Assembly: GCA_037446255.1 (NCBI GenBank)
Contig: JBBIIY010000002.1
Location: 69,630-133,629 of the forward strand
DNA: 64,000 nucleotides
Direction: 5' to 3'
From: Coprothermobacterota bacterium
GTDB taxonomy: Bacteria; Coprothermobacterota; HKB111
The position numbers and the translations under genes are program-made. The notes under the pieces are model-generated. The model had not been told where the DNA came from. It ran no database searches and saw only the letters and a list, made by a program, of their open reading frames with translations. This document shows positions 6,041-54,834 of the stretch, piece by piece. Position 1 is the first letter of the stretch; each line of letters opens with the position of its first letter.

Positions 6041-6047
6041 AATTATG

Positions 6048-6192: not shown

Positions 6193-6200
6193 GAACAAAT

Positions 6201-7960: not shown

Positions 7961-7994
7961 TAATTTCAAAACGGAGGTTAATATATATTAATTT

Positions 7995-9197: not shown

Positions 9198-9224
9198 GAT
9201 TTACACTTAAAGGAGGAAACAACA

Positions 9225-9692
9225 ATGAGTAAAGTATTTGAAGGAAATCTGTTAGGAGAAGGTTTAAAATTTGCGATAGTAGTCAGCAGGTTCAATGAGT
9301 TCATAACTTCTAAATTATTAGATGGGGCTAAGGACTGTTTAGTAAGACATGGAGTAAAAGAAAGCGATATTGATATTTTCTGGACACCTGGTTCATATGA
9401 AATACCCTTGATTGCCAAAGAAATTGCCAGAAGAAAAAAACACCAAGCTATTATTTGTCTTGGTACAGTTATTAGAGGTAGTACTCCTCATTTTGAGTAT
9501 GTGGCTAATGAAGCTGCCAAAGGAATTGCACAAGTTAATCTGGAAATGGGGATACCTGCTATTTTCGGGATTATCACTGCTGATAATTTAGAACAAGCCA
9601 TAGAGAGGGCAGGAACAAAAGCTGGCAATAAAGGATGGAGTTCAGCTTTAAATGCTATTGAAATGGTAAATCTTATTAAAACTCTGGATTGA
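9225..9692 (+). CDS. ribH: 6,7-dimethyl-8-ribityllumazine synthase
   Basis: 155 aa; typical N-terminus ([15 protein letters not shown]); good SD AAAGGAGG upstream. Confidence 0.9.
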
Positions 9693-10180
9693 AAGTTATA
9701 GTTGTTTTTGGTCAGCATAAAACGGGTAAAACTACTGTAGTAGAGTCTCTTATCAGAGGGCTGTCCGATAATGGTTTTTCGGTAGCTACCATTAAAGATA
9801 TTCACTCACCTGACTTTACGCCAGACACTCAGGGTACGGATACTTTTAGACATATTTCCGCAGGAGCTAAGATAACTGTGGGTTTAGGTCTAAATAAGAC
9901 CGCTATTTTCACTCCCCGGAGAATTAAAATAGATAAGTTATTGGAATTTATTGATTGCGATTACTTGATTATTGAAGGGAATTTACCTGTTAAAGGAGTA
10001 AAAATTTTTTGTGCCCATTCTCCAGAAGAATTACCCTCAACAGATCCAGCTGTAATTGCTATATCTGGATTGGTTTCTAATTTAAATACTGATTCTTCTA
10101 AAATCCCTATCCTCCATCCAATATTACAAAGAAGTGAATTGGTCAATCTGGTTTTAAAAAATAGTAAAGAAATAAAATAA
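9689..10180 (+). CDS. MobB-like P-loop NTPase (molybdopterin-guanine dinucleotide biosynthesis protein B family), TTG start overlapping the ribH stop
   Basis: 163 aa; Walker [10 protein letters not shown]; MobB-like IKDIHSPDF and LIIEGN motifs. Confidence 0.6.
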
Positions 10181-10212
10181 ATACTTAAATATGTTGAATA
10201 ATTACTGATAAA

Positions 10213-11058
10213 TCATTCAGACTGTTTAAGATTACTTAAAGTAAGCGATACTTGCGACCCTAATTTAGCGTTATTAAGTAATAGACTTTTATTAGACTTT
10301 AAAGATATACCTTTAGAATAGTAATTAATCTTTTTAAGAAGATAGGGTGTCAGATCCTTACCTTTAATACCAGCAGATTTTGCATCATCTACTGCTTTAT
10401 TTATGTATATTTGCATTTCATTAAAAGGAATATTTGATGTTTCCGGAGGTGGATTAAGAACTAAAATGGATTTCTTCTGGTCAAGCACAGATTGTATCAC
10501 CAGGTAATCAATAAGACTGTTAATATCCATAAAAAATGAGTTTAATTCGTAAGGAGTATCATATGAATAGAAGGCAGGAAAGTATTTTGTCTGATAACCA
10601 ACCACCGGTATTCCTAAAGTTTCTAAAAGTTCAATCGTTTTTGGTATATCCAGTATAGCTTTTACACCCGTAGAAATGATAGTGGCTTCATATTGAGACA
10701 TCATCATCAAATCTTGAGATATATCTATAATCCCCTCTTCCCAACCCCTATGAACTCCGCCAATCCCGCCTGTGGAAAATACTTTTAAACCGCTTTGGTA
10801 AGAAATAAATAAGGTAGCGGAAACAGTAGTTCCTCCGGATAGTTTTTTAGCCATAGCATAAGAAAGGTCTCCTGCAGATAGTTTAACAACATCTTTTTCT
10901 TTACCTAAAAATTCAATTTCATCTAATGCAAGACCTACCTTTATTTGGCCTTTAATAACCCCGATGGTAGCCGGGATTACACCAGTTGATTTTACGACAC
11001 TTTCTAAAGCCAGAGATAATTCCACATTGTCAGGAAAAGGTAAACCATGTGTTAACAC
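10213..11058 (-). CDS. psuG: Pseudouridine-5'-phosphate glycosidase
   Basis: 281 aa; hallmark GGIGGVHRG motif. Confidence 0.7.
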   Translation of the reverse strand: MLTHGLPFPDNVELSLALESVVKSTGVIPATIGVIKGQIKVGLALDEIEFLGKEKDVVKLSAGDLSYAMAKKLSGGTTVSATLFISYQSGLKVFSTGGIGGVHRGWEEGIIDISQDLMMMSQYEATIISTGVKAILDIPKTIELLETLGIPVVGYQTKYFPAFYSYDTPYELNSFFMDINSLIDYLVIQSVLDQKKSILVLNPPPETSNIPFNEMQIYINKAVDDAKSAGIKGKDLTPYLLKKINYYSKGISLKSNKSLLLNNAKLGSQVSLTLSNLKQSE

Positions 11059-11143
11059 TGCAGTTTCCAGAGCTAAAACTGGTTTATTATTTAATAGGGC
11101 ATATTTTATTTCTGGAGATATATAAATAAGATCTTTTAAAATT

Positions 11144-11950
11144 TTAAACTCTCTTTTTTTCAGAAAGAAAAATATCTATGGGAAAGGATTTTTCTGATCC
11201 ATCATTTAATTTTATCAATAAAGTTGACTTAACCAGATTTTTCCCTGATACTATACCTTCACCTGTAGGTGTTTTAACTTTATCTCCTACTTTAGGTAGT
11301 TTTGCATCTAACTCTTCATAATAATCCAACTCATAGCGCAAGCAACACATTAAGCGGCCACATATACCCGATATTTTTTCTGGACTGACTAACAATCCTT
11401 GTATCTTAGCCATATTTACCCCAATAGAACTAAACTCGGTAATAAATCTATTACAACAGGCAACCTGCCCGCAAGGACCTATACCACCTAATAGCTTAGA
11501 TCTTTCTCTCTGATTTATCTGCCAGAGTTCAACCCTTTTTTTTAATTTCTTCGCTAAGTCTTTAACCATATCTCTGAAATCTACCCTTTCTTCGGAAAAA
11601 AAATAAAATACAATTTTATTTTCACCAAATGAGGGGATTGTTTTTATCAATTTAATAGGTAAATGGTGTTCTTTCAATAATTCCTGGAAAATATTGGTTG
11701 CTTCTTCTTTAGTTTCCTCAATTTTAGCAATTTTATCCTGATCAGATTCAGTAGGAAACCTTAAAATTCTGACCATATTTTTTTCAATAATTGAGGGTAT
11801 TAAAAAATGAGTTCTGATGATTTTTCCTACTTCCTCTTTATTCTCTTTATCCACTATCACCTGATCACCAGGGTGAATTTCCAGGTCAGTATGTTTAGAG
11901 AAAACTAATTCCATACCCTGATTTATTCTGATTACTACTAATTCATACAT
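11144..11950 (-). CDS. ricT: PSP1 C-terminal domain protein (RicT/YaaT-like)
   Basis: 268 aa; Cys cluster GPCGQVACC...GICGRLMCCLRYE; located downstream of holB as in Firmicutes. Confidence 0.75.
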   Translation of the reverse strand: MYELVVIRINQGMELVFSKHTDLEIHPGDQVIVDKENKEEVGKIIRTHFLIPSIIEKNMVRILRFPTESDQDKIAKIEETKEEATNIFQELLKEHHLPIKLIKTIPSFGENKIVFYFFSEERVDFRDMVKDLAKKLKKRVELWQINQRERSKLLGGIGPCGQVACCNRFITEFSSIGVNMAKIQGLLVSPEKISGICGRLMCCLRYELDYYEELDAKLPKVGDKVKTPTGEGIVSGKNLVKSTLLIKLNDGSEKSFPIDIFLSEKKRV

Positions 11951-22643: not shown

Positions 22644-23792
22644 TTATAACTTCTTACCAAAAATAAAGAACTTCTTATAAGGTACTCCCCCAGCATTTTT
22701 AATTACATTATTTATTCCCCAGTTATCTTCAAGAGTCATTGAGGCTTCTCCCCAAGTATAACCTTTTTTACTAACTTCTAAAGCAGTTTTGGTATATAAT
22801 AGCGCACTTAAACCCCGGTTTCTATATTCTTCCAATACACCAAGAATAAATACTCTCATTGATTTCATTTTTCTAAACTTTAATCTATAAAGCAATTTGG
22901 CCAGGTTCCAGGGAGAAATATTACCATTAAAATCGCTTATAAATTCATTTATATTGGGTAAAGTTACTGATACTCCCACTGGCTGTCCATCAATATAAGC
23001 GAATAAGATTAAGTTCGGGTCAATAATACTCTTAAGTTTTGAGCCTACATATTTTACATCATCGTCAGTAATTGGAGTAAAGCCCCAGTTATTTTTCCAG
23101 CATTCATTATAAAGATATTTGATTATTTGCAATTCCTCGTCAAATTTCTTCATATTCACATTTCTAATTTCTACCTGAAATCTCTTTTCCAGGTTATTAG
23201 TTACACTCTTTAACCAGCCTTCTTTTTCAGTAAAAGCTTTTATTTCTACTTGCCAGGCATACCAGGTTTTAACTATTTCAAATTCGCAGTTAACTAATAA
23301 ATCTGGATAATATGGAGGATTATATCCCGTTAGTATAACCGGCGCTGAAAAACCTTCTGCTAAAACTCCTATTTCATCGCTCATGGTTGGACTTATTGGC
23401 CCTATTACATCGGTCATTCCTTTTTCTTTTATCCAGTTACAAGAATTCTCTAAAAGAAGTTTACTCGCATCTAAATCATTAACGCATTCAAAAAAACCAA
23501 AATATCCAGTTTTAGACTGATGATAATCCACATATTGAAAATCTATATGAGCAGAGACCCTACCAATTATTTTACCTTTAAACTCAACCATGAATAAATG
23601 CATTTGACCATGCTTAAAAAAGGGATTTAAAGAAGGAGAAAAACTTTGTGATAATTCTACCCTAAGAGGGTGTATATAATTCCTGTCACCTTTATATATT
23701 TCATTTTTGTAAGTGAAATCAATAAATTTATTTAAATTATTTTTATCATTTACTGGAAAGTCAATAATTCTATAATTATTCATATATTTCAC
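22644..23792 (-). CDS. Tandem GNAT-fold acyltransferase-like protein
   Basis: 382 aa; C-terminal half carries the acyl-CoA binding signature (EEYRNRGLSALLY); the N-terminal half looks like a second, degenerate GNAT-like domain. Confidence 0.5.
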   Translation of the reverse strand: MKYMNNYRIIDFPVNDKNNLNKFIDFTYKNEIYKGDRNYIHPLRVELSQSFSPSLNPFFKHGQMHLFMVEFKGKIIGRVSAHIDFQYVDYHQSKTGYFGFFECVNDLDASKLLLENSCNWIKEKGMTDVIGPISPTMSDEIGVLAEGFSAPVILTGYNPPYYPDLLVNCEFEIVKTWYAWQVEIKAFTEKEGWLKSVTNNLEKRFQVEIRNVNMKKFDEELQIIKYLYNECWKNNWGFTPITDDDVKYVGSKLKSIIDPNLILFAYIDGQPVGVSVTLPNINEFISDFNGNISPWNLAKLLYRLKFRKMKSMRVFILGVLEEYRNRGLSALLYTKTALEVSKKGYTWGEASMTLEDNWGINNVIKNAGGVPYKKFFIFGKKL

Positions 23793-25403: not shown

Positions 25404-27842
25404 ATGGTTAAGTTAGTTTCTACACAAGTAACCTGTAAATGCTTATCTGAAGAATTTACTTTTACTACCACCAATGATGTTTCACCCCTGGAAGTAACTA
25501 TAGGACAGGACAGGGCTATAAAAGCTATTGAGGTGGCTTTGAATATGAAAACCAAGGGATTCAACCTGTATATTGCTGGTCCTCGCGGAGTAGGTAAAAC
25601 TTCAGCTATTAAATCTCTCTTAACTAAAAGGGCACCCAAAGAACCGGTTCCTCCTGATATTGTTTATGTTTTCAACTTTAAATTCCCCGAATCTCCCAAG
25701 CCCTTAATATTGAAAGCGGGTTTAGGGAAAATTCTTTCTCAAGAAATGGTCAATTTTACTAATGAACTTAAAAACGATATTTCCCAGATTTTTGAAAGTG
25801 ATGATTACGAAAAAAGAAAATCAAAAATTATTAATAAAACCCAATCTGAAAAAGAAAAATTTATTAACCATGTCCAAAATCTGGCTAAAGATGAAGGTTT
25901 CACTCTCCAAATAACACCTCAGGGTATTTTTACCATGCCTATGAAAAATGGCACTCCACTCTCCCCCGAAGAATATCAATCACTATCCGAGGAAGATAAA
26001 AAAGCCCTGGAAACAAAAAACAAAAAAGTCATAGAAGAAATAAACCGTACTCTGCGTAATATAAAAAAAATTGAAAGAGATGCTCTGATTGAGTTGAACA
26101 AACTGGATATTGAATTAGTAAAGTTTCTCTTAACCAATTTGAGTGCAGAAATTAAATCGTTATTCAATAATGAACCAAATATTCTAAGTTATATAAATGA
26201 GGTAGAAGAAGAAATTTTGTCTAAAATCAACGAATTAAAAACTCCCAAAGAAACTTCATCTCTAACTCCTTCACCCTTTCCCCTTATAGTAACTGACCCC
26301 TTTGCAAAATACCAGATTAATGTAATTGTTGACAATTCAAACACTGAAGGAGCACCAATTGTTTTTGAAAATAATCCTACTTATTCCAACCTGATTGGTA
26401 GAATCGAGTTTAAATCACAGTATGGTGTCACAACTACCAGTTTTGACCTTATAAAATCGGGATCATTATTAAAAGCTAATGGTGGTTACCTCGTTATTCA
26501 AATATTGGATATATTAAAAAATCCTTATGCCTGGGAAGCCTTAAAAAAATCTTTACAGAATAATGAGGTCAAAATTGAAAATATCGGTGATCAGTTGAGA
26601 ATGGATCCGGTAGTAACACTTAAGCCAGAATCCATCCCGTTGATTAACTGTGAGGTTATTCTCATAGGAAGCTTGCAACACTATTATCTTCTTTATAATT
26701 ACGACGAGGATTTCAGAAAACTTTTCAAAATAAGGGCAGATTTTGATACAGAAATGGATAGAAACTATAACTCAATTTCTAAGTATGCGTCATTTATCAG
26801 TTCCAGGGTTAAAGAAGAAGGTTTAAATCCTTTTAACAGAGAAGCTGTAGGAACGGTTATTGACTATGGTACAAGATTAGCTGGCAACCAGAAGAAACTT
26901 TCTACCAGGTTTAGCGATATATCGGACCTGATCTCTGAAGCTAATTACTGGTCAATGCAGGAGAACAAACAGATAGTTGAACAAGCACATGTCTTTAAAG
27001 CTCTCCAGGAAAAAATATATCGTTCTAATTTAATTGAAGAAAAAATTATGGAACTAATCAAAGAAGGTACAATACTACTTGACATTTCAGGAAGTAAAAT
27101 TGGCCAAGTTAATGGCCTTTCCATTTTAGGCCTGTCAGACTATTCTTTTGGAAAACCTTCCAGAATTACCGCCTCGGTATCTTTAGGAAACCAGGGAATT
27201 ATAAACTTAGAGAGAGAAGTTGCGATGAGTGGTCCTATCCATAGCAAAGGAGTTCTAATTCTTACGGGCTTTCTCAGGGATAAATTTGCCCGCACCCACC
27301 CCTTATCTCTTAATGCCAGTTTGGTATTTGAGCAACTTTATGAGGAAATAGAGGGGGATAGCGCTTCCAGTGCTGAACTATATGCTTTATTATCTGCCAT
27401 TGCATCTGTTCCCTTAAAGCAAAACCTGGCTGTTACCGGTTCAGTAAATCAAAAAGGTGAGGTCCAACCTGTAGGGGGTGTAACCAGAAAAATAGAGGGC
27501 TTTTACGATATATGTAAAGTAAAAGGATTAACCGGTGATCAGGGAGTTATTATCCCTATTCAGAACATAAACAACCTGATACTTAGAGAAGATGTGGTTA
27601 AAGCTATTGAAGAAAACAGATTCCATCTTTATGCTATTGAGAGCATAGATGAAGGAATAGAACTCCTTACTTCAATGAAAGCAGGTGTGAAAGACGATAA
27701 GGGAAATTATGAAGAATGTTCTTTTTATCACATACTTGAAAAACAATTATATCAAATGGCATTAAGCCTGAAAGAGTATGATAAAGAAAAGAAAAGCCGG
27801 GTTAATACCTCCAGAAAGCTCCAACGCCCCCATAAGCCATAA
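25404..27842 (+). CDS. Lon-like ATP-dependent protease (AAA_32 / COG1067-type, with a long helical insertion in the ATPase domain)
   Basis: 812 aa; Walker A GPRGVGKTS. C-terminal Lon S16 proteolytic domain with Ser (GDSASSAELYALLSAI) and Lys (VGGVTRKIEGF) dyad context. Roughly 150-aa K/E-rich helical insert. Confidence 0.75.
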   Translation: MVKLVSTQVTCKCLSEEFTFTTTNDVSPLEVTIGQDRAIKAIEVALNMKTKGFNLYIAGPRGVGKTSAIKSLLTKRAPKEPVPPDIVYVFNFKFPESPKPLILKAGLGKILSQEMVNFTNELKNDISQIFESDDYEKRKSKIINKTQSEKEKFINHVQNLAKDEGFTLQITPQGIFTMPMKNGTPLSPEEYQSLSEEDKKALETKNKKVIEEINRTLRNIKKIERDALIELNKLDIELVKFLLTNLSAEIKSLFNNEPNILSYINEVEEEILSKINELKTPKETSSLTPSPFPLIVTDPFAKYQINVIVDNSNTEGAPIVFENNPTYSNLIGRIEFKSQYGVTTTSFDLIKSGSLLKANGGYLVIQILDILKNPYAWEALKKSLQNNEVKIENIGDQLRMDPVVTLKPESIPLINCEVILIGSLQHYYLLYNYDEDFRKLFKIRADFDTEMDRNYNSISKYASFISSRVKEEGLNPFNREAVGTVIDYGTRLAGNQKKLSTRFSDISDLISEANYWSMQENKQIVEQAHVFKALQEKIYRSNLIEEKIMELIKEGTILLDISGSKIGQVNGLSILGLSDYSFGKPSRITASVSLGNQGIINLEREVAMSGPIHSKGVLILTGFLRDKFARTHPLSLNASLVFEQLYEEIEGDSASSAELYALLSAIASVPLKQNLAVTGSVNQKGEVQPVGGVTRKIEGFYDICKVKGLTGDQGVIIPIQNINNLILREDVVKAIEENRFHLYAIESIDEGIELLTSMKAGVKDDKGNYEECSFYHILEKQLYQMALSLKEYDKEKKSRVNTSRKLQRPHKP

Positions 27843-28965
27843 GTTTTTTACCTGCATCACTTCCTACAACTTCCAATTTTGCTCCAAAACTGAGTACTAA
27901 GGGTGGTAGAAAGCTCTTAGATGAGCCTTCAGTAAAATCAGTTGAATTGCAATTAGAACAGGGTTTCTCACCTGCAATTTCATGGTAATTACATTTATGG
28001 CATTTCTTTAGGTTTTGATTGAAAACTCTGGAAATTATTACCTTATCAACCCTGCCAGTCTGTATTGATTTTAAAGTGGAATCAAATCCAACACAGGCAA
28101 GAATTCCCGAAGATGACCGTTCTAAAAGATTTTCCACCAAAGTTTTTTCTCTAGCTCTTTCATAGCTCCAAAATACCGAAAGTGCTTGAACCATTATATC
28201 CTTAGGATTGGTATCTACAGGAATGGGTATGTTTCCTACAAACATACCCATCTGTTCTTTACTGAAAAGTTTAAAGTATTTCTCATAAATAACTTCTGAC
28301 CCGCTTAAAACAAATTCTCTGATAGAATGTTCTTTGGCTATAGAATTGAAATGGCTGATAGTATTTTTAAAAAATCGTAATTGATTGGCTTCAATCCTAT
28401 CTTCATAAGCCTCTACCCTATCACCTCCACCTATACTTCCCCGGATAGATCCCTCTCTTGGAGAGGAAGGGGGCATAATTGTTTGTTTCCTCCAATCAGA
28501 AGTATCCAGATCCAGGTTAAAAGATTTAATCTTTTCTATTTTGTTGAGATATACTTTGTATATTTCTACCATATTAGAATCAACCATAAATACACCAAAA
28601 GGTCTATATTCCTCAATTATCCAGATAAGCTGGCCTAAATTTGGTTTACCAAAATATATTTCATTCTCCACATTAACTTGAGATGGCAATAATTCTGTAA
28701 TTTCCTTACTTAAAAATAGAATTATAGATTTATGTTTAAACAAAGTGCCTTCAATCAAAGATTTTGCTTCATCTTCAATAGTTTCCAGATAATCTTTTTT
28801 AAAAGGCTCTATTTTCTCTTTCAGGTCTTTAAAAGCAGTTTTTAACCAGATTAAAGAAGGAGCTCTACCGCCATCGCTGGAAGATGGGTCAATATTTAAA
28901 TAAATGCTTAGAACATCGTTATATTCAGATTTTAAGAGTTCTTCAATCTTTATTGCATCAATCAT
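27802..28965 (-). CDS. eRF1/Pelota-like (baeRF-type) protein with GGG in place of GGQ and a CxxC...CxxC zinc ribbon
   Basis: 387 aa; central region resembles eRF1 domain 2 (FGVFMVDSN...; GSIRGSIGGGDRVEAYEDRIEANQLRF versus eRF1 GRGGQSALRFARLR); C-terminal region resembles eRF1/Pelota domain 3 (ILACVGFDSTLKSIQTGRVDKVII); zinc ribbon CHKCN...CSNC. Confidence 0.5.
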   Translation of the reverse strand: MIDAIKIEELLKSEYNDVLSIYLNIDPSSSDGGRAPSLIWLKTAFKDLKEKIEPFKKDYLETIEDEAKSLIEGTLFKHKSIILFLSKEITELLPSQVNVENEIYFGKPNLGQLIWIIEEYRPFGVFMVDSNMVEIYKVYLNKIEKIKSFNLDLDTSDWRKQTIMPPSSPREGSIRGSIGGGDRVEAYEDRIEANQLRFFKNTISHFNSIAKEHSIREFVLSGSEVIYEKYFKLFSKEQMGMFVGNIPIPVDTNPKDIMVQALSVFWSYERAREKTLVENLLERSSSGILACVGFDSTLKSIQTGRVDKVIISRVFNQNLKKCHKCNYHEIAGEKPCSNCNSTDFTEGSSKSFLPPLVLSFGAKLEVVGSDAGKKLMAYGGVGAFWRY

Positions 28966-45169: not shown

Positions 45170-46627
45170 TTAATCTTTTGGAATCCTAACAATCTGAATC
45201 CAGGTTTGACCATACACTCGTTCTAACTCACGCCCATCCTGGAAATAAAAACGCGTTGGTGAAGTGTTATTATCTTTTACCCAGGTCCCGCTGAAATGCT
45301 GTCCCTGTGAATAGAAGTCAATTTTTCCTTTACCAACTAAATTAGGAGTAGGTCTTCCAAGAATATCCAGTCCATGAGGTGCATACTGAACGATAATGTT
45401 ACGGGCGAGAACCTCTTCTTTAGTGGCATCACGGTGAAGCACACCATTGATATAGCGTCTATAAACACCATTATTTGATAGATAAGCATATCTGACCTGG
45501 TAATTTGAGCTGTATTCCAGAATCACTTCGGATATTTCCTTACCCTCTCTACTTATATATGCGGGTCGTACAACTACTTCTTTGGAAGGTTCTTCTACGC
45601 CCAGGGTGGATAGATTTACATAAAGATTATAGGGAGCCTTTCGAGAAGAATCACGGAAGAAACCGGGATTACCTGAAGTTATAGCATTCGTACTGTTTAC
45701 TTTCCAATCTTTGATTTGAATCAGGATATCGGTACCAGCACTGGCATAAATATAATTAACACTGTTTTCCATAGCCAATATTATGCTGTGACTCCGAGCA
45801 CTTCGTATGGGCCCTACTTTCGTAGGGAAGGATGAAAAAAGAGCTAAATAGCGCGTTATTCCTCCTTCCACTTCATACTCATATATCAGGCTTGCTTTAG
45901 CTAAACCGTGTTGAGGCCTGGCACTAGGGTAATTGTCAATTACAATACCATATACAGGCTTACGCTCTGCCTGTGGTGTAATTTTTACTAATTCAACAGC
46001 CAATCTTTTTTTAGCTGCTTCCAGAAGGTTGTCTTTCACGCGAAGCTGGTCAATGAGATTTTTGTATTCTCCATCTTTCTGACTCCTTAGTTCAAGAAGC
46101 AATTGCCTTTTGCTGGTAATTTCTGTTTTTTGCTTAATTATTAAAGCCTGTTCATTCTTAACATAACTGATCAGTTCCGCATCCCTATTCAGAATTCTCG
46201 TTAAGTACCCCACCCAGACAATAACATCACCTAAATTTTCTGATTTTAGCAATAACTCCAGGTAAGAAATCCTTCCTCTGATATAAGCACTACGGACGCG
46301 ACTGGCGAAAATCCGATTTTTCTCTTTTAATCTGGATTCTGATTGGGTAAGTTCAGTTTCTAACCTTGATAACTGAATTTCTGTTTCCAGATATTCCTGG
46401 TTTAGTTCTTTAATCCTTCTTTCTCTATTGTTGATGGAATCATCTAAGGCTTTTATTACTTTTTCCAGTTCAGCTATTTCTGTTTTAGTTATTTCAACTT
46501 TCTTTCTAATATCTTCAAGAGAAGCATAGGTAGTGTTATAAAACCCACTTAACATAGATATAATTAAAACGACCAATAAGACAGTTGAAATCCAGAAAAG
46601 GTATAATTTAGAATTCCGTATTTCCAT
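45170..46627 (-). CDS. Coiled-coil protein with C-terminal DUF3048 (YerB-like) domain, encoded immediately downstream of ftsEX
   Basis: 485 aa; N-terminal TM helix; about 170-aa coiled coil; C-terminal blocks PVYGIVIDNYPSARPQHGL...YEYEVEGGITRYLALF...GPIRSARS typical of DUF3048. Confidence 0.6.
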   Translation of the reverse strand: MEIRNSKLYLFWISTVLLVVLIISMLSGFYNTTYASLEDIRKKVEITKTEIAELEKVIKALDDSINNRERRIKELNQEYLETEIQLSRLETELTQSESRLKEKNRIFASRVRSAYIRGRISYLELLLKSENLGDVIVWVGYLTRILNRDAELISYVKNEQALIIKQKTEITSKRQLLLELRSQKDGEYKNLIDQLRVKDNLLEAAKKRLAVELVKITPQAERKPVYGIVIDNYPSARPQHGLAKASLIYEYEVEGGITRYLALFSSFPTKVGPIRSARSHSIILAMENSVNYIYASAGTDILIQIKDWKVNSTNAITSGNPGFFRDSSRKAPYNLYVNLSTLGVEEPSKEVVVRPAYISREGKEISEVILEYSSNYQVRYAYLSNNGVYRRYINGVLHRDATKEEVLARNIIVQYAPHGLDILGRPTPNLVGKGKIDFYSQGQHFSGTWVKDNNTSPTRFYFQDGRELERVYGQTWIQIVRIPKD

Positions 46628-46629
46628 TG

Positions 46630-47529
46630 TTAGACCTGCAAATGTTTATGTATAGACACCATACTACCTAATCCACCCAGTAAAGTTCCCATAACTAACA
46701 AACCTATAATAAGGGGTATTAGAATTTCTAAATCTGTTACCGGCTGTATAAAAAATGCCAGAGCTTCCTGATTAAGAGAGACTACCAACCGGTAATAAAC
46801 TGCACTAAGTACTGAAACAGCCAAAAGAGTTCCAATCCATCCTATTACTATTCCTTCCAGAATAAAGGGAAAACGGATAAATGAGTTGCTCGCACCTAAG
46901 TATTTCATAATCCCAATTTCTTCTTGACGAGACATAACAGAAATACGGATGGTAGTTATAATCAAGAATATTGCTCCCAAAGAAAGAAGAGTGCTCAAAA
47001 CCAAAAAAGCTGTATTCAACCACCCGGTAACTCTATTCAACAAATCTATTAATTGTTCTCCATATTCCACAGTCTCAACCCCAGGATAACCTTGAATTTC
47101 TCGAGCCAGTTCAGGAACCATTTCAGCCTTCACTACTCTAACTCTAAAAAGGTCTGGTATAGGGTTATTTTCGCCGCTTAACCCTTCTAAAGGTATCCTG
47201 TTATTCATTGATTTGCTAAAATCCTCCAACCCCTGTTCCTTAGATACATAAGTGTAGTTTTTAACACCTTTAAGATTATCAAGTTTAAACTGTATTTCTT
47301 TCACATCAGCATCATTATGTAGAAAAACACCTATCTCAACATTAGACTCTACATTGGTGATAATTTGACCGGTATTTATAACTACCAGAAGAAACCCGCC
47401 GAAGATGGAAAGAGAAACAGCAATTATTCCTGCTGTAACTAAAACCAGCCAAATATTTCTGAAAATTGAAACAAAACTCTGTCGCAAACAGTATCTCAAT
47501 GAATTAATATTCAGTGCTGTAACCTCCAT
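46630..47529 (-). CDS. ftsX: Cell division permease FtsX
   Basis: 299 aa; four TM helices with a large extracellular loop; overlaps ftsE. Confidence 0.85.
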   Translation of the reverse strand: MEVTALNINSLRYCLRQSFVSIFRNIWLVLVTAGIIAVSLSIFGGFLLVVINTGQIITNVESNVEIGVFLHNDADVKEIQFKLDNLKGVKNYTYVSKEQGLEDFSKSMNNRIPLEGLSGENNPIPDLFRVRVVKAEMVPELAREIQGYPGVETVEYGEQLIDLLNRVTGWLNTAFLVLSTLLSLGAIFLIITTIRISVMSRQEEIGIMKYLGASNSFIRFPFILEGIVIGWIGTLLAVSVLSAVYYRLVVSLNQEALAFFIQPVTDLEILIPLIIGLLVMGTLLGGLGSMVSIHKHLQV

Positions 47530-48193
47530 TTTGCTCGTCTCTAATAATACGCCCTTTTTTTAGAGCTATTACTCTTTTTTGCATGCGGTCTACTAAATCC
47601 CAGGCGTGTGTGGCAACAATTACTGTAGTTCCACCTTCGTTTATACTTTCAAAAAGTTTCATAAGCTGTTTTGAATTATCTCTGTCCACATTTCCTGTAG
47701 GTTCATCAGCCAGGATAATTAAGGGATCTTTAACAATAGCCCTGGCAATTCCTACTCTTTGCGCTTCTCCTCCAGATAACTCGGAAGGGAAAGCCTTCTC
47801 CTTGCCTGTTAGACCAACTTTCTCTAAGGCTAAAGGTACTTTTTGCCTGACTTTCCTGGGAGATTGCCCTAAAACCTCCAGGGCAAAAGCTACATTTTCA
47901 TAAACAGTTTTTTGTTTCAATAACCGAAAGTCCTGAAAGACCATCCCAATCCGCCTGCGATATCTGATAAGTTCGCTCTCCATAAAATCGTTAATATTTC
48001 TTTTTAAAAAAAATATTGTACCCGCGGTGGGCATAACTTCCCGAAATAATAATTTAATAAGTGTACTCTTCCCTGCTCCACTGGGACCAACCAGAAAAAT
48101 AAATTCCCCTCGTTCTATGTGTAACGAAATACTTGCTACAGCTGGATGATTACCATCATTATAAGACTTGGTCACATTCCTGAATTCAATCAA
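47504..48193 (-). CDS. ftsE: Cell division ATP-binding protein FtsE (TTG start)
   Basis: 229 aa; Walker A GPSGAGKST; signature LSGGEAQR; Walker B ILADEPTG. Confidence 0.85.
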   Translation of the reverse strand: MIEFRNVTKSYNDGNHPAVASISLHIERGEFIFLVGPSGAGKSTLIKLLFREVMPTAGTIFFLKRNINDFMESELIRYRRRIGMVFQDFRLLKQKTVYENVAFALEVLGQSPRKVRQKVPLALEKVGLTGKEKAFPSELSGGEAQRVGIARAIVKDPLIILADEPTGNVDRDNSKQLMKLFESINEGGTTVIVATHAWDLVDRMQKRVIALKKGRIIRDEQNGGYSTEY

Positions 48194-48234: not shown

Positions 48235-48386
48235 ACCCAGATTTAAGTACTGGTCTAAATAACCCTGTAAATATGCCTGATAAAATATAGAAAATAATTG
48301 ATTTATGTTATTAAATAGTTCAAAGTAAAAGTGCTGGCCGGCTTTCATTCTGACAATAAAATTAAAGCAGTTATCCTTAAAGATAA

Positions 48387-50297
48387 CTACTTTTGTTTGT
48401 TTCTTAATTTGCGAACATTTCCGTCCCGAAAAGTTATTTTCTGATTATCAAACCATTCAAGCAAAGGGATAGCGTATTTACGAGAAATATTAAACAAATC
48501 TTTAAAATCCCCCGGGCTAATTTCTTCTTTATTCATAAGATAATCAATAAATCCTTTTTTTATGTTTTCAATTACAGAGGTTAAGAACACTAACTCTTCC
48601 GAAACCTTAATAATATCGCCTGTTTCTGCCATAGCTTTAAGCAAACTGTGCAGTTTATCTTTTTTCCATCCTTCCTTATTCATTATTTCAACTAATTCTT
48701 TAATAGTGGGGGGGGTAAATTTATTTTCCCCTAATAATCTCAACAAGGTAGTTCTACCTTCCAGCCATTCACCACTAAACACAGCTTTCAACCCTTTTAA
48801 TCTTACTATTTGACCATTAACCTCCACCATACCTGAATCAACCAGGTACTTAATAAAAATACGAAACTGCTTCACATCTAAACCGATAAGTTTATTCCTT
48901 AGCTCTTCCAGTAAAAAACCTGGAGAATGAGGATTGGCCTGATGATAATCATGCAATTTTTGTTCCACAAATAATTTATTTTCTTCAAACCTTGATTTCA
49001 AGGAGACATATAATGGTTGTTCCGGGGGAAGTAAAACAAGTTTATCGGAATTTACCACTTCTTTAATTATTTCTTCTTCCTCTTTTTGGGAAATAAAGGA
49101 AAGTGCTGGAATATCAATCATAAAACTATCTTCATTATTAAGAATTTTTATTAACCTTGTAGAAGGATCTTCTAAATTTACTGCCGAGCTGAAAAGGGTT
49201 TTTTTTCTTCTTTTAATGGCATAGGGATCAAGTATACATCCTCCTCCAATGGTATTTATCGGAGAGTAACTTCTAATTATAAACCTATCTCCTTCACGGG
49301 CAACCACAGGTTCCTCAAGATAAATCTGTGCATAATTGGTTTCAGTTGGAAGAATTTCTTTTAAACCTGCAAATAAAACTCTTCCTAATACTTCGCTAGA
49401 CCCATGGTAAAACCTTACTCTCTGACCGTGTTTCAACAGGATATTTTTTTTGGTTGGGAGTAATTCAATTTTTAAATCAAGTAAAGATGTAGGTTTATAT
49501 GATTGTGGAGTACAAATTACCTCACCTCTCTTTATCTGACTAACTTTTACATCAGGTAAATTCAAGGCTGCCCTTTCACCAGCAATTGCTTCTTCCACAG
49601 ACTGATAGTGAACTTCTATAGACCTAACTTTTGAATTAAGCCCTTCTGGAAGTATTTCTATGCTCTGACCTTTTTTGACCATCCCATTAAATGTTGTACC
49701 GGTAACTACTGTACCAAAACCTGGCAGAGAAAAAACCCTATCAACAAAAAGGCGAAATGGTCCTGTGGTATCTCTAACCGGTAGAGAAAGAGAAAAATTA
49801 TCAATTAATTCAATCAGATTAGCTATACCCGTATTGTTCACTGTTGAAGTATAGACTATGGGAGCATTTTCTAAAAAACTATTTTTTACTCCCTCCCTGA
49901 TCTCTTTTTCCAGGATTGGCAAGTCAATTTCACTCACCAGGTCAATTTTAGTTACAACTACAGTTCCCTTTTTTAATCCTAATAAATTCAAAATTGCCAG
50001 ATGCTCGTTAGTTTGAGGCATAAATCCTTCATCAGCAGCTACAATCAGTAAAGCTAAATCTATACCATAGCAACCGCTGATCATCTTCCTCACTAACCGT
50101 TCGTGTCCTGGTACATCAATAAATCCAGCAATAACTCCTGAAGGCAGTTTTAAGTAAGCATAACCAAGTTCTATGGATATTCCTCTTTCTCTTTCTTCCT
50201 TCAGACGGTCAGTTTCGATACCTGTTAGGGATTTAACTAACCGGGTTTTACCATGATCAATATGACCTGCAGTACCAACCACCATATAGTTTCGCAC
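48387..50297 (-). CDS. selB: Selenocysteine-specific translation elongation factor SelB
   Basis: 636 aa; GTPase motifs GHIDHGKT, DVPGHE, TKID; long C-terminal winged-helix SECIS-binding extension; last gene of the sel operon. Confidence 0.9.
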   Translation of the reverse strand: MRNYMVVGTAGHIDHGKTRLVKSLTGIETDRLKEERERGISIELGYAYLKLPSGVIAGFIDVPGHERLVRKMISGCYGIDLALLIVAADEGFMPQTNEHLAILNLLGLKKGTVVVTKIDLVSEIDLPILEKEIREGVKNSFLENAPIVYTSTVNNTGIANLIELIDNFSLSLPVRDTTGPFRLFVDRVFSLPGFGTVVTGTTFNGMVKKGQSIEILPEGLNSKVRSIEVHYQSVEEAIAGERAALNLPDVKVSQIKRGEVICTPQSYKPTSLLDLKIELLPTKKNILLKHGQRVRFYHGSSEVLGRVLFAGLKEILPTETNYAQIYLEEPVVAREGDRFIIRSYSPINTIGGGCILDPYAIKRRKKTLFSSAVNLEDPSTRLIKILNNEDSFMIDIPALSFISQKEEEEIIKEVVNSDKLVLLPPEQPLYVSLKSRFEENKLFVEQKLHDYHQANPHSPGFLLEELRNKLIGLDVKQFRIFIKYLVDSGMVEVNGQIVRLKGLKAVFSGEWLEGRTTLLRLLGENKFTPPTIKELVEIMNKEGWKKDKLHSLLKAMAETGDIIKVSEELVFLTSVIENIKKGFIDYLMNKEEISPGDFKDLFNISRKYAIPLLEWFDNQKITFRDGNVRKLRNKQK

Positions 50298-50301
50298 TCT
50301 G

Positions 50302-51663
50302 TTAAACCTCGTTCAGTAAACTTATCAGCTCTTCATCCTGTGTCTCTAAAATCGTTCTCAGGTCAATAGTAAAAGAATCATTACTTATAGTGCCGATCAA
50401 AGGAGGGCTGGTATTTCTAAAATAAATGGACAATCCCTCAGCTGTTTTATCTTCTTTTTTAACTGCAATCAGTATGGTGGGAATAACGCAATCTGGTAAG
50501 GAACCTCCCCCGGTAGTTGAGGTGCCTTCAATAATCTCAAAATTTTTTTTATTATCAACTTTTCTTAAAATATAGCGAGCTCTTTTTCTTAATTCGCTAA
50601 CATCCATTAATAACATTCTGAAAAGAGGTGATTCTAAAAATAATCTATTTTCATCAAAGTATAATTCCAGAACTGCCTCCAGCGCCACTACAGTCATTTT
50701 GTCTATTCTCAAGGCTCGTGATAGTGGATGTTGTTTTAATATTTTAATTAATTGATTTTTACCAATTATTATTCCGCATTGAGGACCACCTAATAATTTA
50801 TCGCCTGAAAAAAGAACCAGATCTACTCCTGCTTTAAGGCTGCCCTCGACTGTTGGTTCAGTTTTTAAATATTCTATAGGGTAATTTTTTAATAACCCGC
50901 TTCCCAGGTCTTCAATAGTTATAAGATTCCTTTCTCTCCCTAAACTTGTCAATTTTTTTAAATCAACCTGCTGGGTAAATCCCTTGATAGAAAAATTACT
51001 GGGGTGCACTTTAAGCAGAGAAGAAGTGTTTTCATTAATGGCTTTGGAATAATCGCTAATCCGGGTGATATTGGTTGTTCCAACTTCTATTAATTTAGCA
51101 CCACTTTGCAGCATAATGTCCGGTACGCGAAATGAACCCCCTATTTCAACTAACTCTCCACGAGAAACCAGGACCTCTTTTTCTCGGCAAAGAGCAGAAA
51201 GAACCAACAAAACAGCACCAGCATTATTATTTACCACGAAAGCTGACTCTCCCCCTGTCAATTTAGTTAACATATATTCAATATTTTCCAGTCTGCTTCC
51301 TCGTTCTCCTGAACTTAGATTATATTCCAAGTTAGAATAAGAGCTCATCACATCCAAAACATTTATGCAGGATATCATCGGTAGTGGGCTTCTTCCCAGG
51401 TTTGTATGAAGTAACACTCCGGTACCATTTAAAACTTTCCTGATTCTTCTTTTTGAAATGAATTGTTTTACTTCATAAATGATGGTTTGTATGGAAATAT
51501 CCAATTCAGGATTGCTTTTAGACTGAAGTCTTAATTTTACTAATTTATCATTTATAGCTTCTTTTACCAGATTCCTTGGGTACTGTTTGAAAAGTTCTCT
51601 AACCTCAGGATTAGATAAAATAGTTTCCATTGAAGGCAATTTCCTCAACTGATTTTCTTTCAT
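50302..51663 (-). CDS. selA: L-seryl-tRNA(Sec) selenium transferase (selenocysteine synthase)
   Basis: 453 aa; SelA family pattern including the PLP-lysine region (FSGDKLLGGPQCGII). Confidence 0.9.
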   Translation of the reverse strand: MKENQLRKLPSMETILSNPEVRELFKQYPRNLVKEAINDKLVKLRLQSKSNPELDISIQTIIYEVKQFISKRRIRKVLNGTGVLLHTNLGRSPLPMISCINVLDVMSSYSNLEYNLSSGERGSRLENIEYMLTKLTGGESAFVVNNNAGAVLLVLSALCREKEVLVSRGELVEIGGSFRVPDIMLQSGAKLIEVGTTNITRISDYSKAINENTSSLLKVHPSNFSIKGFTQQVDLKKLTSLGRERNLITIEDLGSGLLKNYPIEYLKTEPTVEGSLKAGVDLVLFSGDKLLGGPQCGIIIGKNQLIKILKQHPLSRALRIDKMTVVALEAVLELYFDENRLFLESPLFRMLLMDVSELRKRARYILRKVDNKKNFEIIEGTSTTGGGSLPDCVIPTILIAVKKEDKTAEGLSIYFRNTSPPLIGTISNDSFTIDLRTILETQDEELISLLNEV

Positions 51664-52812
51664 TTAATCCCTCCTTAAAATCTCATTTAGAGATTTAGAA
51701 AAATATTGTATTTCATCATGAGTATTAAAAATACTAAAACTACATCTTATAGTGCCAATGGGAAAGGTACCCAGGCTTTTGTGGGCAAGAGGAGAACAAT
51801 GCAGACCTGCCCTGACCATTATCCCATAATCTCTGTCAAGAATATTGGTAATTGTGGATATATCTTTGTTTTTTATATTAAAAGAAAGAATCCCTGTGGT
51901 TTTCTTTGAGTCCAAGGGTCCGAATAAATTAATACTTTTTTCGCTTACTAATTTCTCTATTAAAAAATCACGAAGTTTCCTTTCGTGTAAAACAACTGAA
52001 GATATTCCCATTTCTAATAGAAAATCTACTCCTGCTCCCAAACCTATTATTCCTACGGAATTCAAGGTACCTGACTCAAATTTATCCGGTAAAAAATCAG
52101 GTTGATATTCTTCTTCTGATTGACTGCCAGTTCCTCCTTCAATGAGTGGTTCTAATATACCAGCAAGCCTGGGTGATAGAACCACTCCTCCAGTCCCTTG
52201 AGGTCCATATAACCCTTTATGACCGGTAAAAGCAAAAGCATCTATATGCCAATTATCTGCTTCTATGGTTTCAAAACCAGCTAATTGCGCTCCATCTACT
52301 AAAAAAAGGATATCATTAGAATGAGCTATTTTTCCAATCTTGGCTAAGGGTTGAATAGTTCCAGATACATTAGAAGCTCCCAAAACCGTAATCAGTTTTG
52401 CTCCCATTTGCGCCTGATTTTTCAGGGTTTCCAAGTCAATTAACCCCTCGGAGTTGGAAGGTATAAAAACAAGTTTAACGCCTTTCCTTTCAAGATTTCT
52501 AAGCGGTCTTATTACAGCATTATGTTCCATTGAAGACAGTATTACCCTGTCCCCGGGTTTTAATAATCCTTTTAAAACCATGTTTATGGCATAGGTTGAA
52601 TTATAGGTGAAAATAACCCTCAGAGGGTCATTTACACCAAATAGTTGGGCAACTTTGCATCTAACTCCATAAACTTTCTTGCTTGTCTCTATAGCCCATT
52701 GATAGTGACCCCTTCCTGTGCTGCCACCAATACTTTTCAAATGGTAGTCAATAGTCTCAATAACCTTTTCTGGCTTAGGATAGGTGGTAGCGGCATTATC
52801 CAGGTAAATCAA
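51664..52812 (-). CDS. Class V aminotransferase (cysteine desulfurase / selenocysteine lyase-like)
   Basis: 382 aa; N-terminus MIYLDNAATTYP; PLP-lysine region (AFTGHKGLYGPQGTGG); embedded between yedF and selA. Confidence 0.75.
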   Translation of the reverse strand: MIYLDNAATTYPKPEKVIETIDYHLKSIGGSTGRGHYQWAIETSKKVYGVRCKVAQLFGVNDPLRVIFTYNSTYAINMVLKGLLKPGDRVILSSMEHNAVIRPLRNLERKGVKLVFIPSNSEGLIDLETLKNQAQMGAKLITVLGASNVSGTIQPLAKIGKIAHSNDILFLVDGAQLAGFETIEADNWHIDAFAFTGHKGLYGPQGTGGVVLSPRLAGILEPLIEGGTGSQSEEEYQPDFLPDKFESGTLNSVGIIGLGAGVDFLLEMGISSVVLHERKLRDFLIEKLVSEKSINLFGPLDSKKTTGILSFNIKNKDISTITNILDRDYGIMVRAGLHCSPLAHKSLGTFPIGTIRCSFSIFNTHDEIQYFSKSLNEILRRD

Positions 52813-52814
52813 AC

Positions 52815-53033
52815 CTAATCACTAACCTTTTGTAAACTATCAACAGGTATCTCATTGGTTTCCAGGAGTTTAACTGTCTTCTCCAGTATTGTTTCAGCTA
52901 TGAGAATAGAAAGGTTGCAGGAAGGGTCAAGTTCCCGGGGAGTAGGAATTATTTGATGGGGAATTTTCTCCTTCTCTAATATATGGTTCACTTTTAATAC
53001 CAAGTTGGTAGTAGGGAGTTGAATTAAAATCAT
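52815..53033 (-). CDS. DUF3343-like small protein (putative Se/S carrier partner of YedF)
   Basis: 72 aa; size and position immediately downstream of yedF match the known YedF-DUF3343 pairing. Confidence 0.5.
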   Translation of the reverse strand: MILIQLPTTNLVLKVNHILEKEKIPHQIIPTPRELDPSCNLSILIAETILEKTVKLLETNEIPVDSLQKVSD

Positions 53034-53590
53034 AAGGAGGTTACATTCCCAAGTAAAAGGTATTTCAGTATTTCAAACATATTGGAAATATTTCCTGCTT
53101 TAAGTTCGTTTTCCAGGTTAAAATACTTCAAGCAAGTCCCGCATACCAGGATATTTACACCCATTTCTGCCAATTTTTGAAGAGGTTGACAGCAGTTTTC
53201 ATCACAGGCTAAATACACTCCTGTATTCATCAGTACTAAAGTTTCAGGGAGAATCGGAGATTGAATTAGAGTATTCAGGAAGGACTTCATTAATAATCCA
53301 CCCAGCTCGTCATCCCCTTTACCCAGGCATCGCGATGAAAGAAACAATGTTTTACCATGATTGTCTTTATCTATTTTTGGGGTTTTCATTTCATTTTCCA
53401 GTCGTATTTTATAAATTCCCTCTTCCATTGTCCAATCGGCAGTAATATCTCTACTGCTGGCAAACCTGAGCAGGTTATTTAAAGTAGTTTCGTTGTCAAC
53501 TATTACCTCTAAACAATTGATTCCTTCTTCCAGAGCTTTTTTAACTCTAATAACCGGTTGAGGACAGGGTAAACCTCTTAAATCCATCAA
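53030..53590 (-). CDS. yedF: Selenium metabolism protein YedF (TusA-like N-domain + DsrE-like C-domain)
   Basis: 186 aa; TusA-type CPxP motif (DLRGLPCPQPVIRVKKAL); C-terminal DsrE-like region. Confidence 0.8.
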   Translation of the reverse strand: MMDLRGLPCPQPVIRVKKALEEGINCLEVIVDNETTLNNLLRFASSRDITADWTMEEGIYKIRLENEMKTPKIDKDNHGKTLFLSSRCLGKGDDELGGLLMKSFLNTLIQSPILPETLVLMNTGVYLACDENCCQPLQKLAEMGVNILVCGTCLKYFNLENELKAGNISNMFEILKYLLLGNVTSL

Positions 53591-53611
53591 TAACCTAATA
53601 TCCCCCTCAAA

Positions 53612-54652
53612 TCAGATAATTTCTATTTTTTCTTCTTCATCTTTAACAAATGAGCCTATGATAGAGGCAGTTGAAAATCCTGCTTCCTTTAAAATCAACA
53701 AAAGAAGTTCAGCATTATTTTCCTCAACCACCACCAGCAATCCCCCTGAAGTTTGTGGGTCATAAAGTAGAATCGGGTCAAAAATCATATTATCATGAGT
53801 AATATTATTAATTACCTTTGGCGATGCCCATTTTTCATTTCTATAAGCTCCTCCGGGAACAAACCCGCTTAGAGCTAATTCATTAGCTTTTTTAAAAATA
53901 GGTATTTCACGAGCAATCATTTTAATACCTAACTTTGACTTATTTATCATGCTGAGAGCGTGAACTATCAAACCAAAGCCAGTAACATCGGTACAAGCCT
54001 TAATTTTAATCTTATGATTTTTCAATAATACCGGTAAATTGTTTAGTTTCTTCATGGAATAAGCTACACTATTTATTATATCCAGGGGGGCTTCGCCAGC
54101 TTTAAGAGCGGTAGAAACAATACCAGTGCCAATAGGTTTAGTAAGTATCAATACATCACCTTCATCAGCCCCGCCAACTCTCCACAGGTTATCTTTAGTA
54201 CCAAATCCTGTGACTACCATACCATATTTAATCTCTTCATCTTCTATGGTATGCCCTCCTCCAATTAATACTCCAGCTTCACCTGCTTTATCCTGCCCTC
54301 CAGCAAGTATCTGGCTCAAAACTTCTTTGGGTAATATAGAGCAAGGAAAAGCAATTATATTAAGTGCTAATTCAGGTAAACAACCCATGGTATAAATATC
54401 ACTTATCGCATTAGCTGCTACTACCTGCCCAAAATCATAAGGGTTATCAAGAATAGGGGTAATCATATCCACGGTTTGCACCAAAACCGAGTTTCCCTCG
54501 GTGGAATACACGGTGGCGTTTTCCCACCCTTCCCAATGAGAAAGCAGTTTGGAGTTATAAGGTAATTTTAAGCTGCTTAAGACCTCACCGAGGTCTCCTG
54601 GTCCAACTTTAGCAGCTCAACCAGCAGCTTTAGCAAAATCGGTTAACCTCAT
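53612..54652 (-). CDS. selD: Selenide, water dikinase SelD, itself a selenoprotein (in-frame TGA at codon 12, complement of 54617..54619)
   Basis: Minus-strand translation from the ATG at 54652 gives MRLTDFAKAAG-U-AAKVGPGDLGEVL, joining in frame to the ORF-track ORF (MYSTEGNSVLVQTVD...), i.e. the canonical SelD N-terminus with Sec at the Cys/Sec position. SD AGGAGG 7 nt upstream. Confidence 0.85.
54573..54616 (-). ncRNA. SECIS-like stem-loop immediately 3' of the selD UGA
   Basis: mRNA GCUGCUaAAG...GACCUC-GGU-GAGGUC...CUUaAGCAGC: outer stem about 9 bp with one mismatch; inner 6-bp stem with a small apical loop about 20 nt from the UGA. Confidence 0.6.
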
Positions 54653-54702
54653 TTTATCCTCCTGTAGACATAATTAACCTAATATTCAAAAACTTTATCG
54701 GC

Positions 54703-54731
54703 TTGACTTATGAGCATAAATATCTTATCAT
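54703..54731 (+). promoter_or_regulatory. Sigma70-type promoter of selC (-35 TTGACT 54703-54708, 17-nt spacer, -10 TATCAT 54726-54731)
   Basis: Consensus-like hexamers with ideal spacing, ending 7 nt upstream of the tRNA-Sec 5' end. Confidence 0.6.
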
Positions 54732-54738
54732 AAAAAAT

Positions 54739-54834
54739 GGGAGTAGATGGGGCGCTGGTGTCCCTCCTGGACTTCAAATCCAATGGCAGGTGTGTTCCAC
54801 CTGTGGTGGGTTCGATTCCCACATACTCCCGCCA
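54739..54834 (+). tRNA. selC: tRNA-Sec (selC), anticodon UCA, CCA encoded
   Basis: 96 nt; 8-position acceptor (GGGAGUAG); 6-bp D-stem with 4-nt loop (GGGGCG-CUGG-UGUCCC); anticodon loop CUUCAAA; long variable arm (CAGGUG-UGUUC-CACCUG); 5-bp T-stem with loop UUCGAUU; divergent from selD. Confidence 0.8.

Follow-up and report, generated by a model that had tools for sequence, protein, structure and literature searches.

The window analysed here is a 64,000-nucleotide stretch of contig JBBIIY010000002.1 (positions 69,630 to 133,629 of the forward strand; assembly GCA_037446255.1) from a bacterium placed in the Coprothermobacterota. Between positions 48387 and 54834 it holds the genes for selenocysteine (Sec) decoding together with a set of genes that may supply selenium to them. 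We read this locus, with a probability of about 85%, as a self-contained selenium-utilisation operon of a relative of Candidatus (Ca.) Psychracetigena formicireducens, with a delivery module feeding the selenophosphate-making enzyme SelD. Six packed genes occupy the minus strand from 54652 down to 48387 in the order selD-yedF-DUF3343-csd-selA-selB, as one uninterrupted 6.3-kb unit with all six genes contiguous and zero inserted genes, and selC, the gene for tRNA-Sec, lies beside selD on the plus strand. The E-values across the six selenium-related families range from 1e-14 to 1e-163, and a run of this kind next to a tRNA-Sec greatly exceeds what chance would produce.

In the proposed route, SelD, YedF, DUF3343, the pyridoxal phosphate (PLP) enzyme encoded by csd, SelA and SelB would be made from one minus-strand transcription unit, with tRNA-Sec transcribed divergently. 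The PLP enzyme would take selenium off free L-selenocysteine, and possibly sulfur off cysteine, as a perselenide on Cys339. The selenium would then pass through carrier thiols (Cys39 of DUF3343 and the CPxP and CGxC cysteines of YedF) to the Sec12/Lys15 loop of SelD, which would make selenophosphate. SelA would turn Ser-tRNA-Sec into Sec-tRNA-Sec, and SelB would bring the latter to UGA codons followed by a selenocysteine insertion sequence (SECIS) hairpin, the UGA in selD being one of them. Because the selD UGA needs SelA and SelB, the products of the last two genes, the first gene of the operon would be under positive feedback. We infer the delivery chemistry from what is established for NifS-like enzymes, SelD, SelA and SelB, and we also infer the order of the carriers and the use of the promoter and terminator.

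A compact sel operon and its conservation

Gene identities were assigned with an open reading frame (ORF) finder and with Pfam and NCBIfam profiles, each score being read against its curated cut-off. All six genes that the first-pass annotation had described as co-directional and tightly packed on the minus strand were confirmed by their family scores. The first, selD (53612-54652, 346 codons with an in-frame TGA), gave 310 bits with TIGR00476 against a cut-off of 125 when Cys was substituted for Sec, the full-length protein aligning from model position 1. It is followed by a two-domain yedF (53030-53590; TIGR03527, 180 bits against 110), by DUF3343 (52815-53033; PF11823, now named Se_S_carrier in Pfam, 53.2 bits against 25) and by csd, which encodes a class V aminotransferase of the group-II NifS-like PLP enzymes (51664-52812; TIGR01977, 438 bits against 377), hereafter the desulfurase. 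The last two genes are selA (50302-51663; TIGR00474, 545 bits against 268, with the Pfam domains SelA and Se-cys_synth_N) and selB (48387-50297; TIGR00475, 369 bits against 242). SelA, SelB and SelD, the core of Sec decoding, each exceed a curated equivalog cut-off. SelB also matched GTP_EFTU and the SelB beta-barrel, and its C-terminal winged-helix domains, PF09106 and PF09107, were found at residues 447-500 and 586-631.

From selD to selB the junctions measure +21, -4, +2, 0 and +4 nt, the start of DUF3343 overlapping the stop of yedF by 4 nt. Such spacing is the mark expected of a single, translationally coupled operon. Upstream of selD, a spacer of 86 bp is shared with the divergent selC unit.

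Four close relatives were retrieved (L082 to L085), and the desulfurase gene lies inside the sel operon in all of them. The six-gene order is kept in L083 and L084 (64% identity) and in L085 (61%), where the flanking genes differ: purine biosynthesis genes lie upstream in L085, and genes for an FMN reductase, an H+-pyrophosphatase and GrdX lie downstream in L083. The GrdX gene is found about 3 kb downstream of selB in both L083 and L084. In the closest relative, L082, the arrangement fakA-selC-selD is the same as in the window, with an assembly gap within the tRNA, and no tRNA-Sec was found next to selD in L083 to L085 by ARAGORN or Rfam. Since a divergent selC was seen in L082 alone among the relatives and the gene order is kept in the other three, the divergent selC belongs to the Psychracetigena-like sub-lineage and the six-gene operon is older.

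The candidate selenium-delivery module

The desulfurase starts at a MIYLDNAAT motif that aligns near residue 22 of SufS, giving it a short N-terminus, and it carries its PLP lysine in a GHK199 motif and its active-site cysteine in RAGLHC339S. K199, R334, G336, H338 and C339 are invariant across 20 aligned members of the TIGR01977-type family. The TIGR01977 model bears the name am_tr_V_EF2568, after EF2568, which is the enzyme SclA of Enterococcus faecalis; SclA prefers Sec and is competitively inhibited by Cys (bioRxiv 10.1101/2020.02.07.939272; PMC13188914). In a sequence search of the PDB, the closest solved structure was Bacillus subtilis SufS (E = 4e-57), and CsdA was matched as well. From its motifs and family we regard the enzyme as a candidate selenocysteine lyase or cysteine desulfurase.

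Both of the small neighbours of the desulfurase have cysteines suited to a carrier role. DUF3343 is a protein of 72 amino acids whose Cys39 is invariant in seven homologues, and an AlphaFold2 model gave it a beta-alpha-beta-beta-alpha-beta fold, with one of five models confident. YedF combines an N-terminal TusA domain with CPQP at residues 9-12 and a C-terminal DsrE-like domain with CGTC at about 150-153, the Pfam match to DsrE being weak; the CPxP and CGxC motif definitions were taken from Lin et al. 2015 (PMC5322559). The same authors proposed YedF as a selenium-related redox protein and DUF3343, with its conserved Cys, as a selenium/sulfur chaperone. Later reviews repeat these proposals, and Pfam renamed DUF3343 accordingly. 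Sequence searches of the PDB with YedF and DUF3343 returned nothing useful beyond a single TusA-like domain.

The neighbourhood of the desulfurase was then surveyed in other bacteria. One genome per GTDB species was scanned with the 20-sequence family alignment, giving 80 loci (L002 to L081) at 37-49% identity, and flanks of up to 10 kb per side were searched with profiles iterated from the window proteins, with no formal random-gene control. DUF3343 was found near the enzyme in 48 of the 80 loci (within 500 bp in 34), two-domain YedF in 22 (within 500 bp in 17), SelD in 15 (5), SelB in 6 (0) and SelA in 4 (0). The matches concentrate right beside the enzyme, which makes chance an unlikely source of these counts. 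At least one of SelD, SelA, SelB and two-domain YedF is nearby in 29 of the 80 loci; SelD, YedF and DUF3343 all lie beside the enzyme in 10; and all six families occur together in two, L066 and L074. The module selD-yedF-DUF3343-csd recurs in Collinsella (L055, L064, L066, L074, L079 and L080) and in the Oscillospiraceae (L043). We had reason to ask whether the desulfurase might be a generic IscS/NifS found irrespective of sel genes, as the first-pass annotation had allowed. Its assignment to the family of SclA, its place within the sel operon of every close relative and these neighbourhoods argue otherwise: the family appears strongly tied to DUF3343, YedF and SelD, with a selenium link that is not exclusive.

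As an observation in its own right, DUF3343 often stands near the enzyme with no selD in reach, and it looks like the primary partner of the enzyme, independent of the Sec trait.

Several results weigh against reading the trio as a module that delivers selenium to SelD. With the SclA exception model, NF040779, the desulfurase reached 339.6 bits, under the cut-off of 525, and by sequence it belongs to the family of SclA but is not closely orthologous to it. The pair His99-His100 of SclA is replaced by His97-Asn98 in the window enzyme, and His-Asn is invariant in the 20 aligned members. Since the H100N variant of SclA is fully active and among the most active variants (bioRxiv 10.1101/2020.02.07.939272), Asn98 is no argument against lyase activity. 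None of the five partner families was found in 27 of the 80 loci, 11 of which have a flank shorter than 3 kb. The searchable literature held no experimental or biochemical study of YedF or DUF3343. Finally, a scan of the window for long reading frames interrupted by TGA gave selD alone, and no selenoprotein consumer.

Among the alternatives, the one that survives best, although we consider it improbable, is that the module salvages or detoxifies selenium, by recovering Sec from degraded selenoproteins or by shielding selenide, and is not the primary supply of environmental selenium to SelD. A Sec lyase requires free Sec, the main source of which is protein turnover, as for the mammalian selenocysteine lyase SCL, and the Pfam survey found no uptake gene such as yedE in the window. 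A biosynthetic role agrees with the co-translation of the module with selD, selA and selB. Recycling and detoxification roles for the delivery genes have been discussed (Lin et al. 2015, PMC5322559). As both routes end at SelD, salvage and supply are indistinguishable by sequence.

A second alternative, which we hold to be quite unlikely, is that csd, DUF3343 and yedF form mainly a sulfur relay for thiolation or Fe-S assembly, with no dedicated role in selenium. The nearest solved structures, SufS and CsdA, are cysteine desulfurases; TusA and DsrE are well-known sulfur-carrier domains; and most pairs of DUF3343 and desulfurase have no selD within 10 kb, the 15 loci named above being the only ones of the 80 that carry it. 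DUF3343 also occurs in organisms that lack SelD (Lin et al. 2015, PMC5322559), for which reason the module may handle sulfur too. In contrast, the trio is flanked by selD and selA, with frames that overlap or abut, and it keeps this position in relatives with other flanks. Moreover, two-domain YedF is almost confined to genomes that contain SelD (P = 2.2e-16; Lin et al. 2015, PMC5322559), and the one characterised member of TIGR01977 is the enzyme with the preference for Sec described above.

We keep to the reading of a Sec lyase that passes selenium through carrier proteins to SelD, which is reasonable and is the standing hypothesis of the field, put forward from comparative genomics (Lin et al. 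2015, PMC5322559). The integrated selenium route suggested by the first-pass annotation agrees with that model, but its novelty had been overstated, since the clustering of YedF, DUF3343 and a Sec lyase with sel genes was already published. More tentatively, and with rather less than even odds in our judgement, DUF3343 might be a dedicated perselenide or persulfide acceptor of the TIGR01977 desulfurases, comparable to SufE or SufU, in a relay from the enzyme to DUF3343, then to YedF and to SelD. This suggestion arises because DUF3343 is the tightest neighbour of the enzyme and is commoner there than any sel gene.

The selenocysteine codon of selD and the divergent tRNA-Sec

The ORF finder lists selD as 53612-54511 only, starting from an internal GTG at 54511. 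Reading through a single TGA (54617-54619, codon 12) extends the gene as far as 54650-54652, where an ATG is preceded by AGGAGG, and the extension restores the catalytic loop KAAG-U-AAKVGPGDL. Of the 19 other loci that gave a selD match, 13 have the motif G-U-A-A-K as well. We considered whether this loop, which is without a second Cys, is unusual and rejected the idea, as the same motif occurs in Collinsella, in Symbiobacterium and in other TGA-containing selD genes.

Starting 3 nt 5' of the selD UGA, a stretch of 68 nt has a folding energy of -22.3 kcal/mol (z = -2.82), matched or bettered by 3 of 200 shuffles, and the RNA fold places a SECIS-like stem-loop at 54561-54622 on the minus strand, directly past the UGA. 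Its apical hairpin, GAGACCUC-GGU-GAGGUCUU, spans 54579-54597. The bSECISearch spacing rule asks for an apical loop 16-37 nt downstream of the UGA with a G in the loop; here the loop GGU begins 27 nt past the UGA and contains GG. The core of the hairpin is invariant in the four relatives, and in the Symbiobacterium selD (L010) the hairpin reads GACCUG...CAGGUC, with both sides of the stem changed. The same region also codes for the conserved peptide GPGDLGEVL, and conservation alone cannot separate constraint on the RNA from constraint on the protein. On this evidence the selD UGA is followed by a SECIS-like hairpin and Sec insertion is predicted, as the first-pass annotation had proposed from the Sec-containing gene. 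The view that the TGA is a true stop and that translation starts at the internal GTG, giving a shortened or inactive enzyme or a decaying locus, has on its side the mechanical ORF list, which shows 53612-54511 alone, but it is hardly credible and is already contradicted by the 47 upstream codons kept in frame across the TGA in L082 to L085 (including the catalytic G-U-x-x-K loop), by the strong ribosome-binding site ahead of the upstream ATG, by the hairpin past the TGA and by the match of full-length SelD to its model from the first position.

At its other end, selD stops at a TGA that is followed 21 nt on by yedF in the same frame (53591-53614, minus strand). Programmed read-through from this stop into yedF was rejected, given that the relatives end selD in TAA and that yedF is in a different frame in L083, and the shared frame was judged coincidental.

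The tRNA-Sec gene is located at 54739-54834 on the plus strand, has the anticodon UCA and measures 96 nt with its encoded CCA. It was found by ARAGORN and, independently, by Rfam model RF01852, at 68.3 bits where the gathering threshold is 47. In the cloverleaf fit the acceptor stem has seven Watson-Crick pairs and a G8.A85 at the eighth position, the D-stem has 6 bp closing a 4-nt loop, the T-stem has 5 bp and the variable arm 7 bp, and G73 precedes the CCA. The gene named in the first-pass annotation thus has the UCA anticodon, the 8/5 acceptor/T-stem geometry, the 6-bp D-stem and the long variable arm of a tRNA-Sec. The G.A mismatch at the eighth acceptor position recurs in the tRNA-Sec of an uncultured member of the Eubacteriales (L016) and of the Collinsella-type loci L066 and L074, and that of a Lachnospiraceae locus (L044) has G.G there. 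At the base of the anticodon stem, C29.A45 and C28.U46 are non-standard; L082 has a G at 45, which gives a C-G pair. Covariation support for the tRNA was not obtained from the close relatives, as L083 to L085 are without an adjacent tRNA-Sec and L082 is gapped. At 7626-7790 of L082 (public assembly GCA_002581605.1), a run of N inside the tRNA-Sec and broken neighbouring genes cause tRNA finders to miss the gene.

A motif scan found the sigma-70-like TTGACT-17-TATCAT motif, also reported by the first-pass annotation, at 54703-54731 on the plus strand. TTGACT (54703-54708) and TATCAT (54726-54731) are separated by a 17-nt spacer and together match the consensus at 10 of 12 positions, and the motif ends 7 nt before base 1 of the tRNA. 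L082 keeps both hexamers, the spacing and the 7-nt distance (TTGACA-17-TATCAT), and the selD side of the spacer diverges; this comparison involves a single relative of about 88% identity. Promoter-like sites occur at chance frequency in sequence of 35% G+C (19 found against 22.4 expected) and terminator-like sites are likewise not enriched over shuffles, which tells against both kinds of call. The position 7 nt before the tRNA and its conservation in L082 are the reasons why we take the motif as suggestive of a selC promoter. In the window and in L082 alike, exactly 7 nt separate the end of the -10 hexamer from G1, and selC transcription may for that reason begin at the mature 5' end or 1 nt ahead of it, leaving little or no leader for RNase P; we offer this as a second and smaller possibility beside the acceptor role of DUF3343, and no less tentatively. 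For selD, no convincing sigma-70 promoter was found in the 86-bp spacer, where a weak TTTATG-17-TAAAGT was noticed by eye (TAAAAT in L082).

At the end of the operon, the motif scan gave a weak terminator-like hairpin at 48364-48393 on the minus strand. It lies over the selB stop, has 13 pairs of which 3 are G-C, runs into T-rich sequence and could serve to terminate the operon. The gene ftsE starts 190 nt beyond it, behind promoter-like sites of its own.

The host, its selenoproteins and comparison with known systems

An identical desulfurase sequence was found on a 200-kb NCBI contig and on a Logan contig from run SRR11582151. The cluster of desulfurases to which the window enzyme is 81% identical holds proteins annotated as "candidate division WS2" and as "Candidatus Psychracetigena formicireducens", and NCBI taxonomy places the genus Psychracetigena within Candidatus Lithacetigenota. 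The nearest relatives of the window fall within Ca. Lithacetigenota, close to Ca. Psychracetigena formicireducens. This phylum was described from the serpentinite springs of Hakuba Happo and The Cedars, and H2-driven glycine reduction by a selenoprotein glycine reductase has been proposed for it (Nobu et al. 2022, PMC9751293). Sec utilisation is listed there as a core function, needed for glycine reductase, and the metagenome-assembled genomes from The Cedars are reported without formate dehydrogenase (PMC9751293). Glycine reductase is for these reasons the likely selenoprotein consumer elsewhere in the genome, where the first-pass annotation expected consumers to be encoded.

Within the window, the scan for TGA-interrupted frames and the Pfam survey, which covered 46 ORFs and so the majority of those that reach 100 amino acids, bear out the first-pass annotation in that no selenoprotein other than SelD was found; the survey showed no Fdh, Grd, Prd or similar protein. 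The ORF at 9961-11175, with an 83-codon tail, was considered as a selenoprotein and rejected: it is a full-length Indigoidine_A protein, and its tail is covered by mobB on the opposite strand. That gene (9689-10180, plus strand) serves molybdopterin guanine dinucleotide synthesis and hints at a molybdenum or tungsten bis-pyranopterin guanine dinucleotide enzyme somewhere in the genome.

Other features of the window are unconnected to the sel locus. Positions 45170-48193 on the minus strand encode ftsE, ftsX and then a 485-amino-acid protein with a PcsB-type coiled coil and the N- and C-terminal domains of DUF3048. A CHAP or M23 hydrolase domain is usual in partners of FtsEX, and this protein may be an unusual FtsEX-controlled effector. 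At 25404-28965, a gene for a LonB/LonC-like AAA protease (plus strand) overlaps at its 3' end, by 41 nt, a convergent gene of the bacterial aeRF1-like release factors (baeRF family 5/10). An FMN riboswitch (111 bits) precedes an ordinary ribD-ribE-ribBA-ribH operon at 6046-9692 on the plus strand, and a 382-amino-acid ORF with no Pfam match (22644-23792, minus strand) is situated between the genes for an M20 peptidase and a CofE-like F420-0:gamma-glutamyl ligase.

Clusters in which all Sec-decoding genes stand beside those for a SirA-like protein (YedF), DUF3343 and a Sec lyase were described in Slackia heliotrinireducens, Coprococcus comes and Lachnospiraceae (Lin et al. 2015, PMC5322559). 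They contain the same six protein families as the window, and the order selD-yedF-DUF3343-csd is seen again in Collinsella, a member of the Coriobacteriia like Slackia. In L066 and L074, selA and selB follow 3-4 kb on, separated from the module by tRNA genes and further ORFs, and selC comes after selB, whereas in the window the genes are contiguous and selC is divergent beside selD. The host phylum also differs from those of the published clusters and is deep-branching. The locus is a well-preserved, ordinary example of a kind of cluster already described in other bacteria; its contribution is a new phylum and an operon that is uninterrupted and especially compact, not a new kind of system. 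In it the full Sec machinery and a candidate delivery module stand together in clean, minimal form, in a phylum of serpentinite springs whose proposed energy metabolism, glycine reduction, depends on a selenoprotein. The locus leaves knowledge of selenium metabolism unchanged and offers a convenient source of genes for testing YedF and DUF3343.

Similar to SclA of E. faecalis, the desulfurase belongs to TIGR01977, has the group-II RxGxHC site, the PLP lysine and the short N-terminus, and is encoded in proximity to selD, the gene of SclA lying in an operon that contains selD. In E. faecalis, SelD serves a selenium-dependent molybdenum hydroxylase and selA and selB are not known to occur, whereas the context in the window is Sec decoding. 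With E. coli the window shares the four core components of the sel system and the proposed hand-over from a desulfurase to SelD. In E. coli, selAB, selC and selD stand at separate loci, the NifS-like CsdB/SufS can donate selenium to SelD in vitro, YedF consists of one TusA-like domain, and a dedicated desulfurase is not known from any sel operon. E. coli SelD has Cys17 where the window protein has Sec, and its second cysteine, Cys19, corresponds to an Ala in the G-U-A-A-K loop. Finally, in placing the gene of a type-II desulfurase beside that of a small Cys-bearing acceptor, the locus resembles the pairs SufS-SufE, SufS-SufU and CsdA-CsdE.

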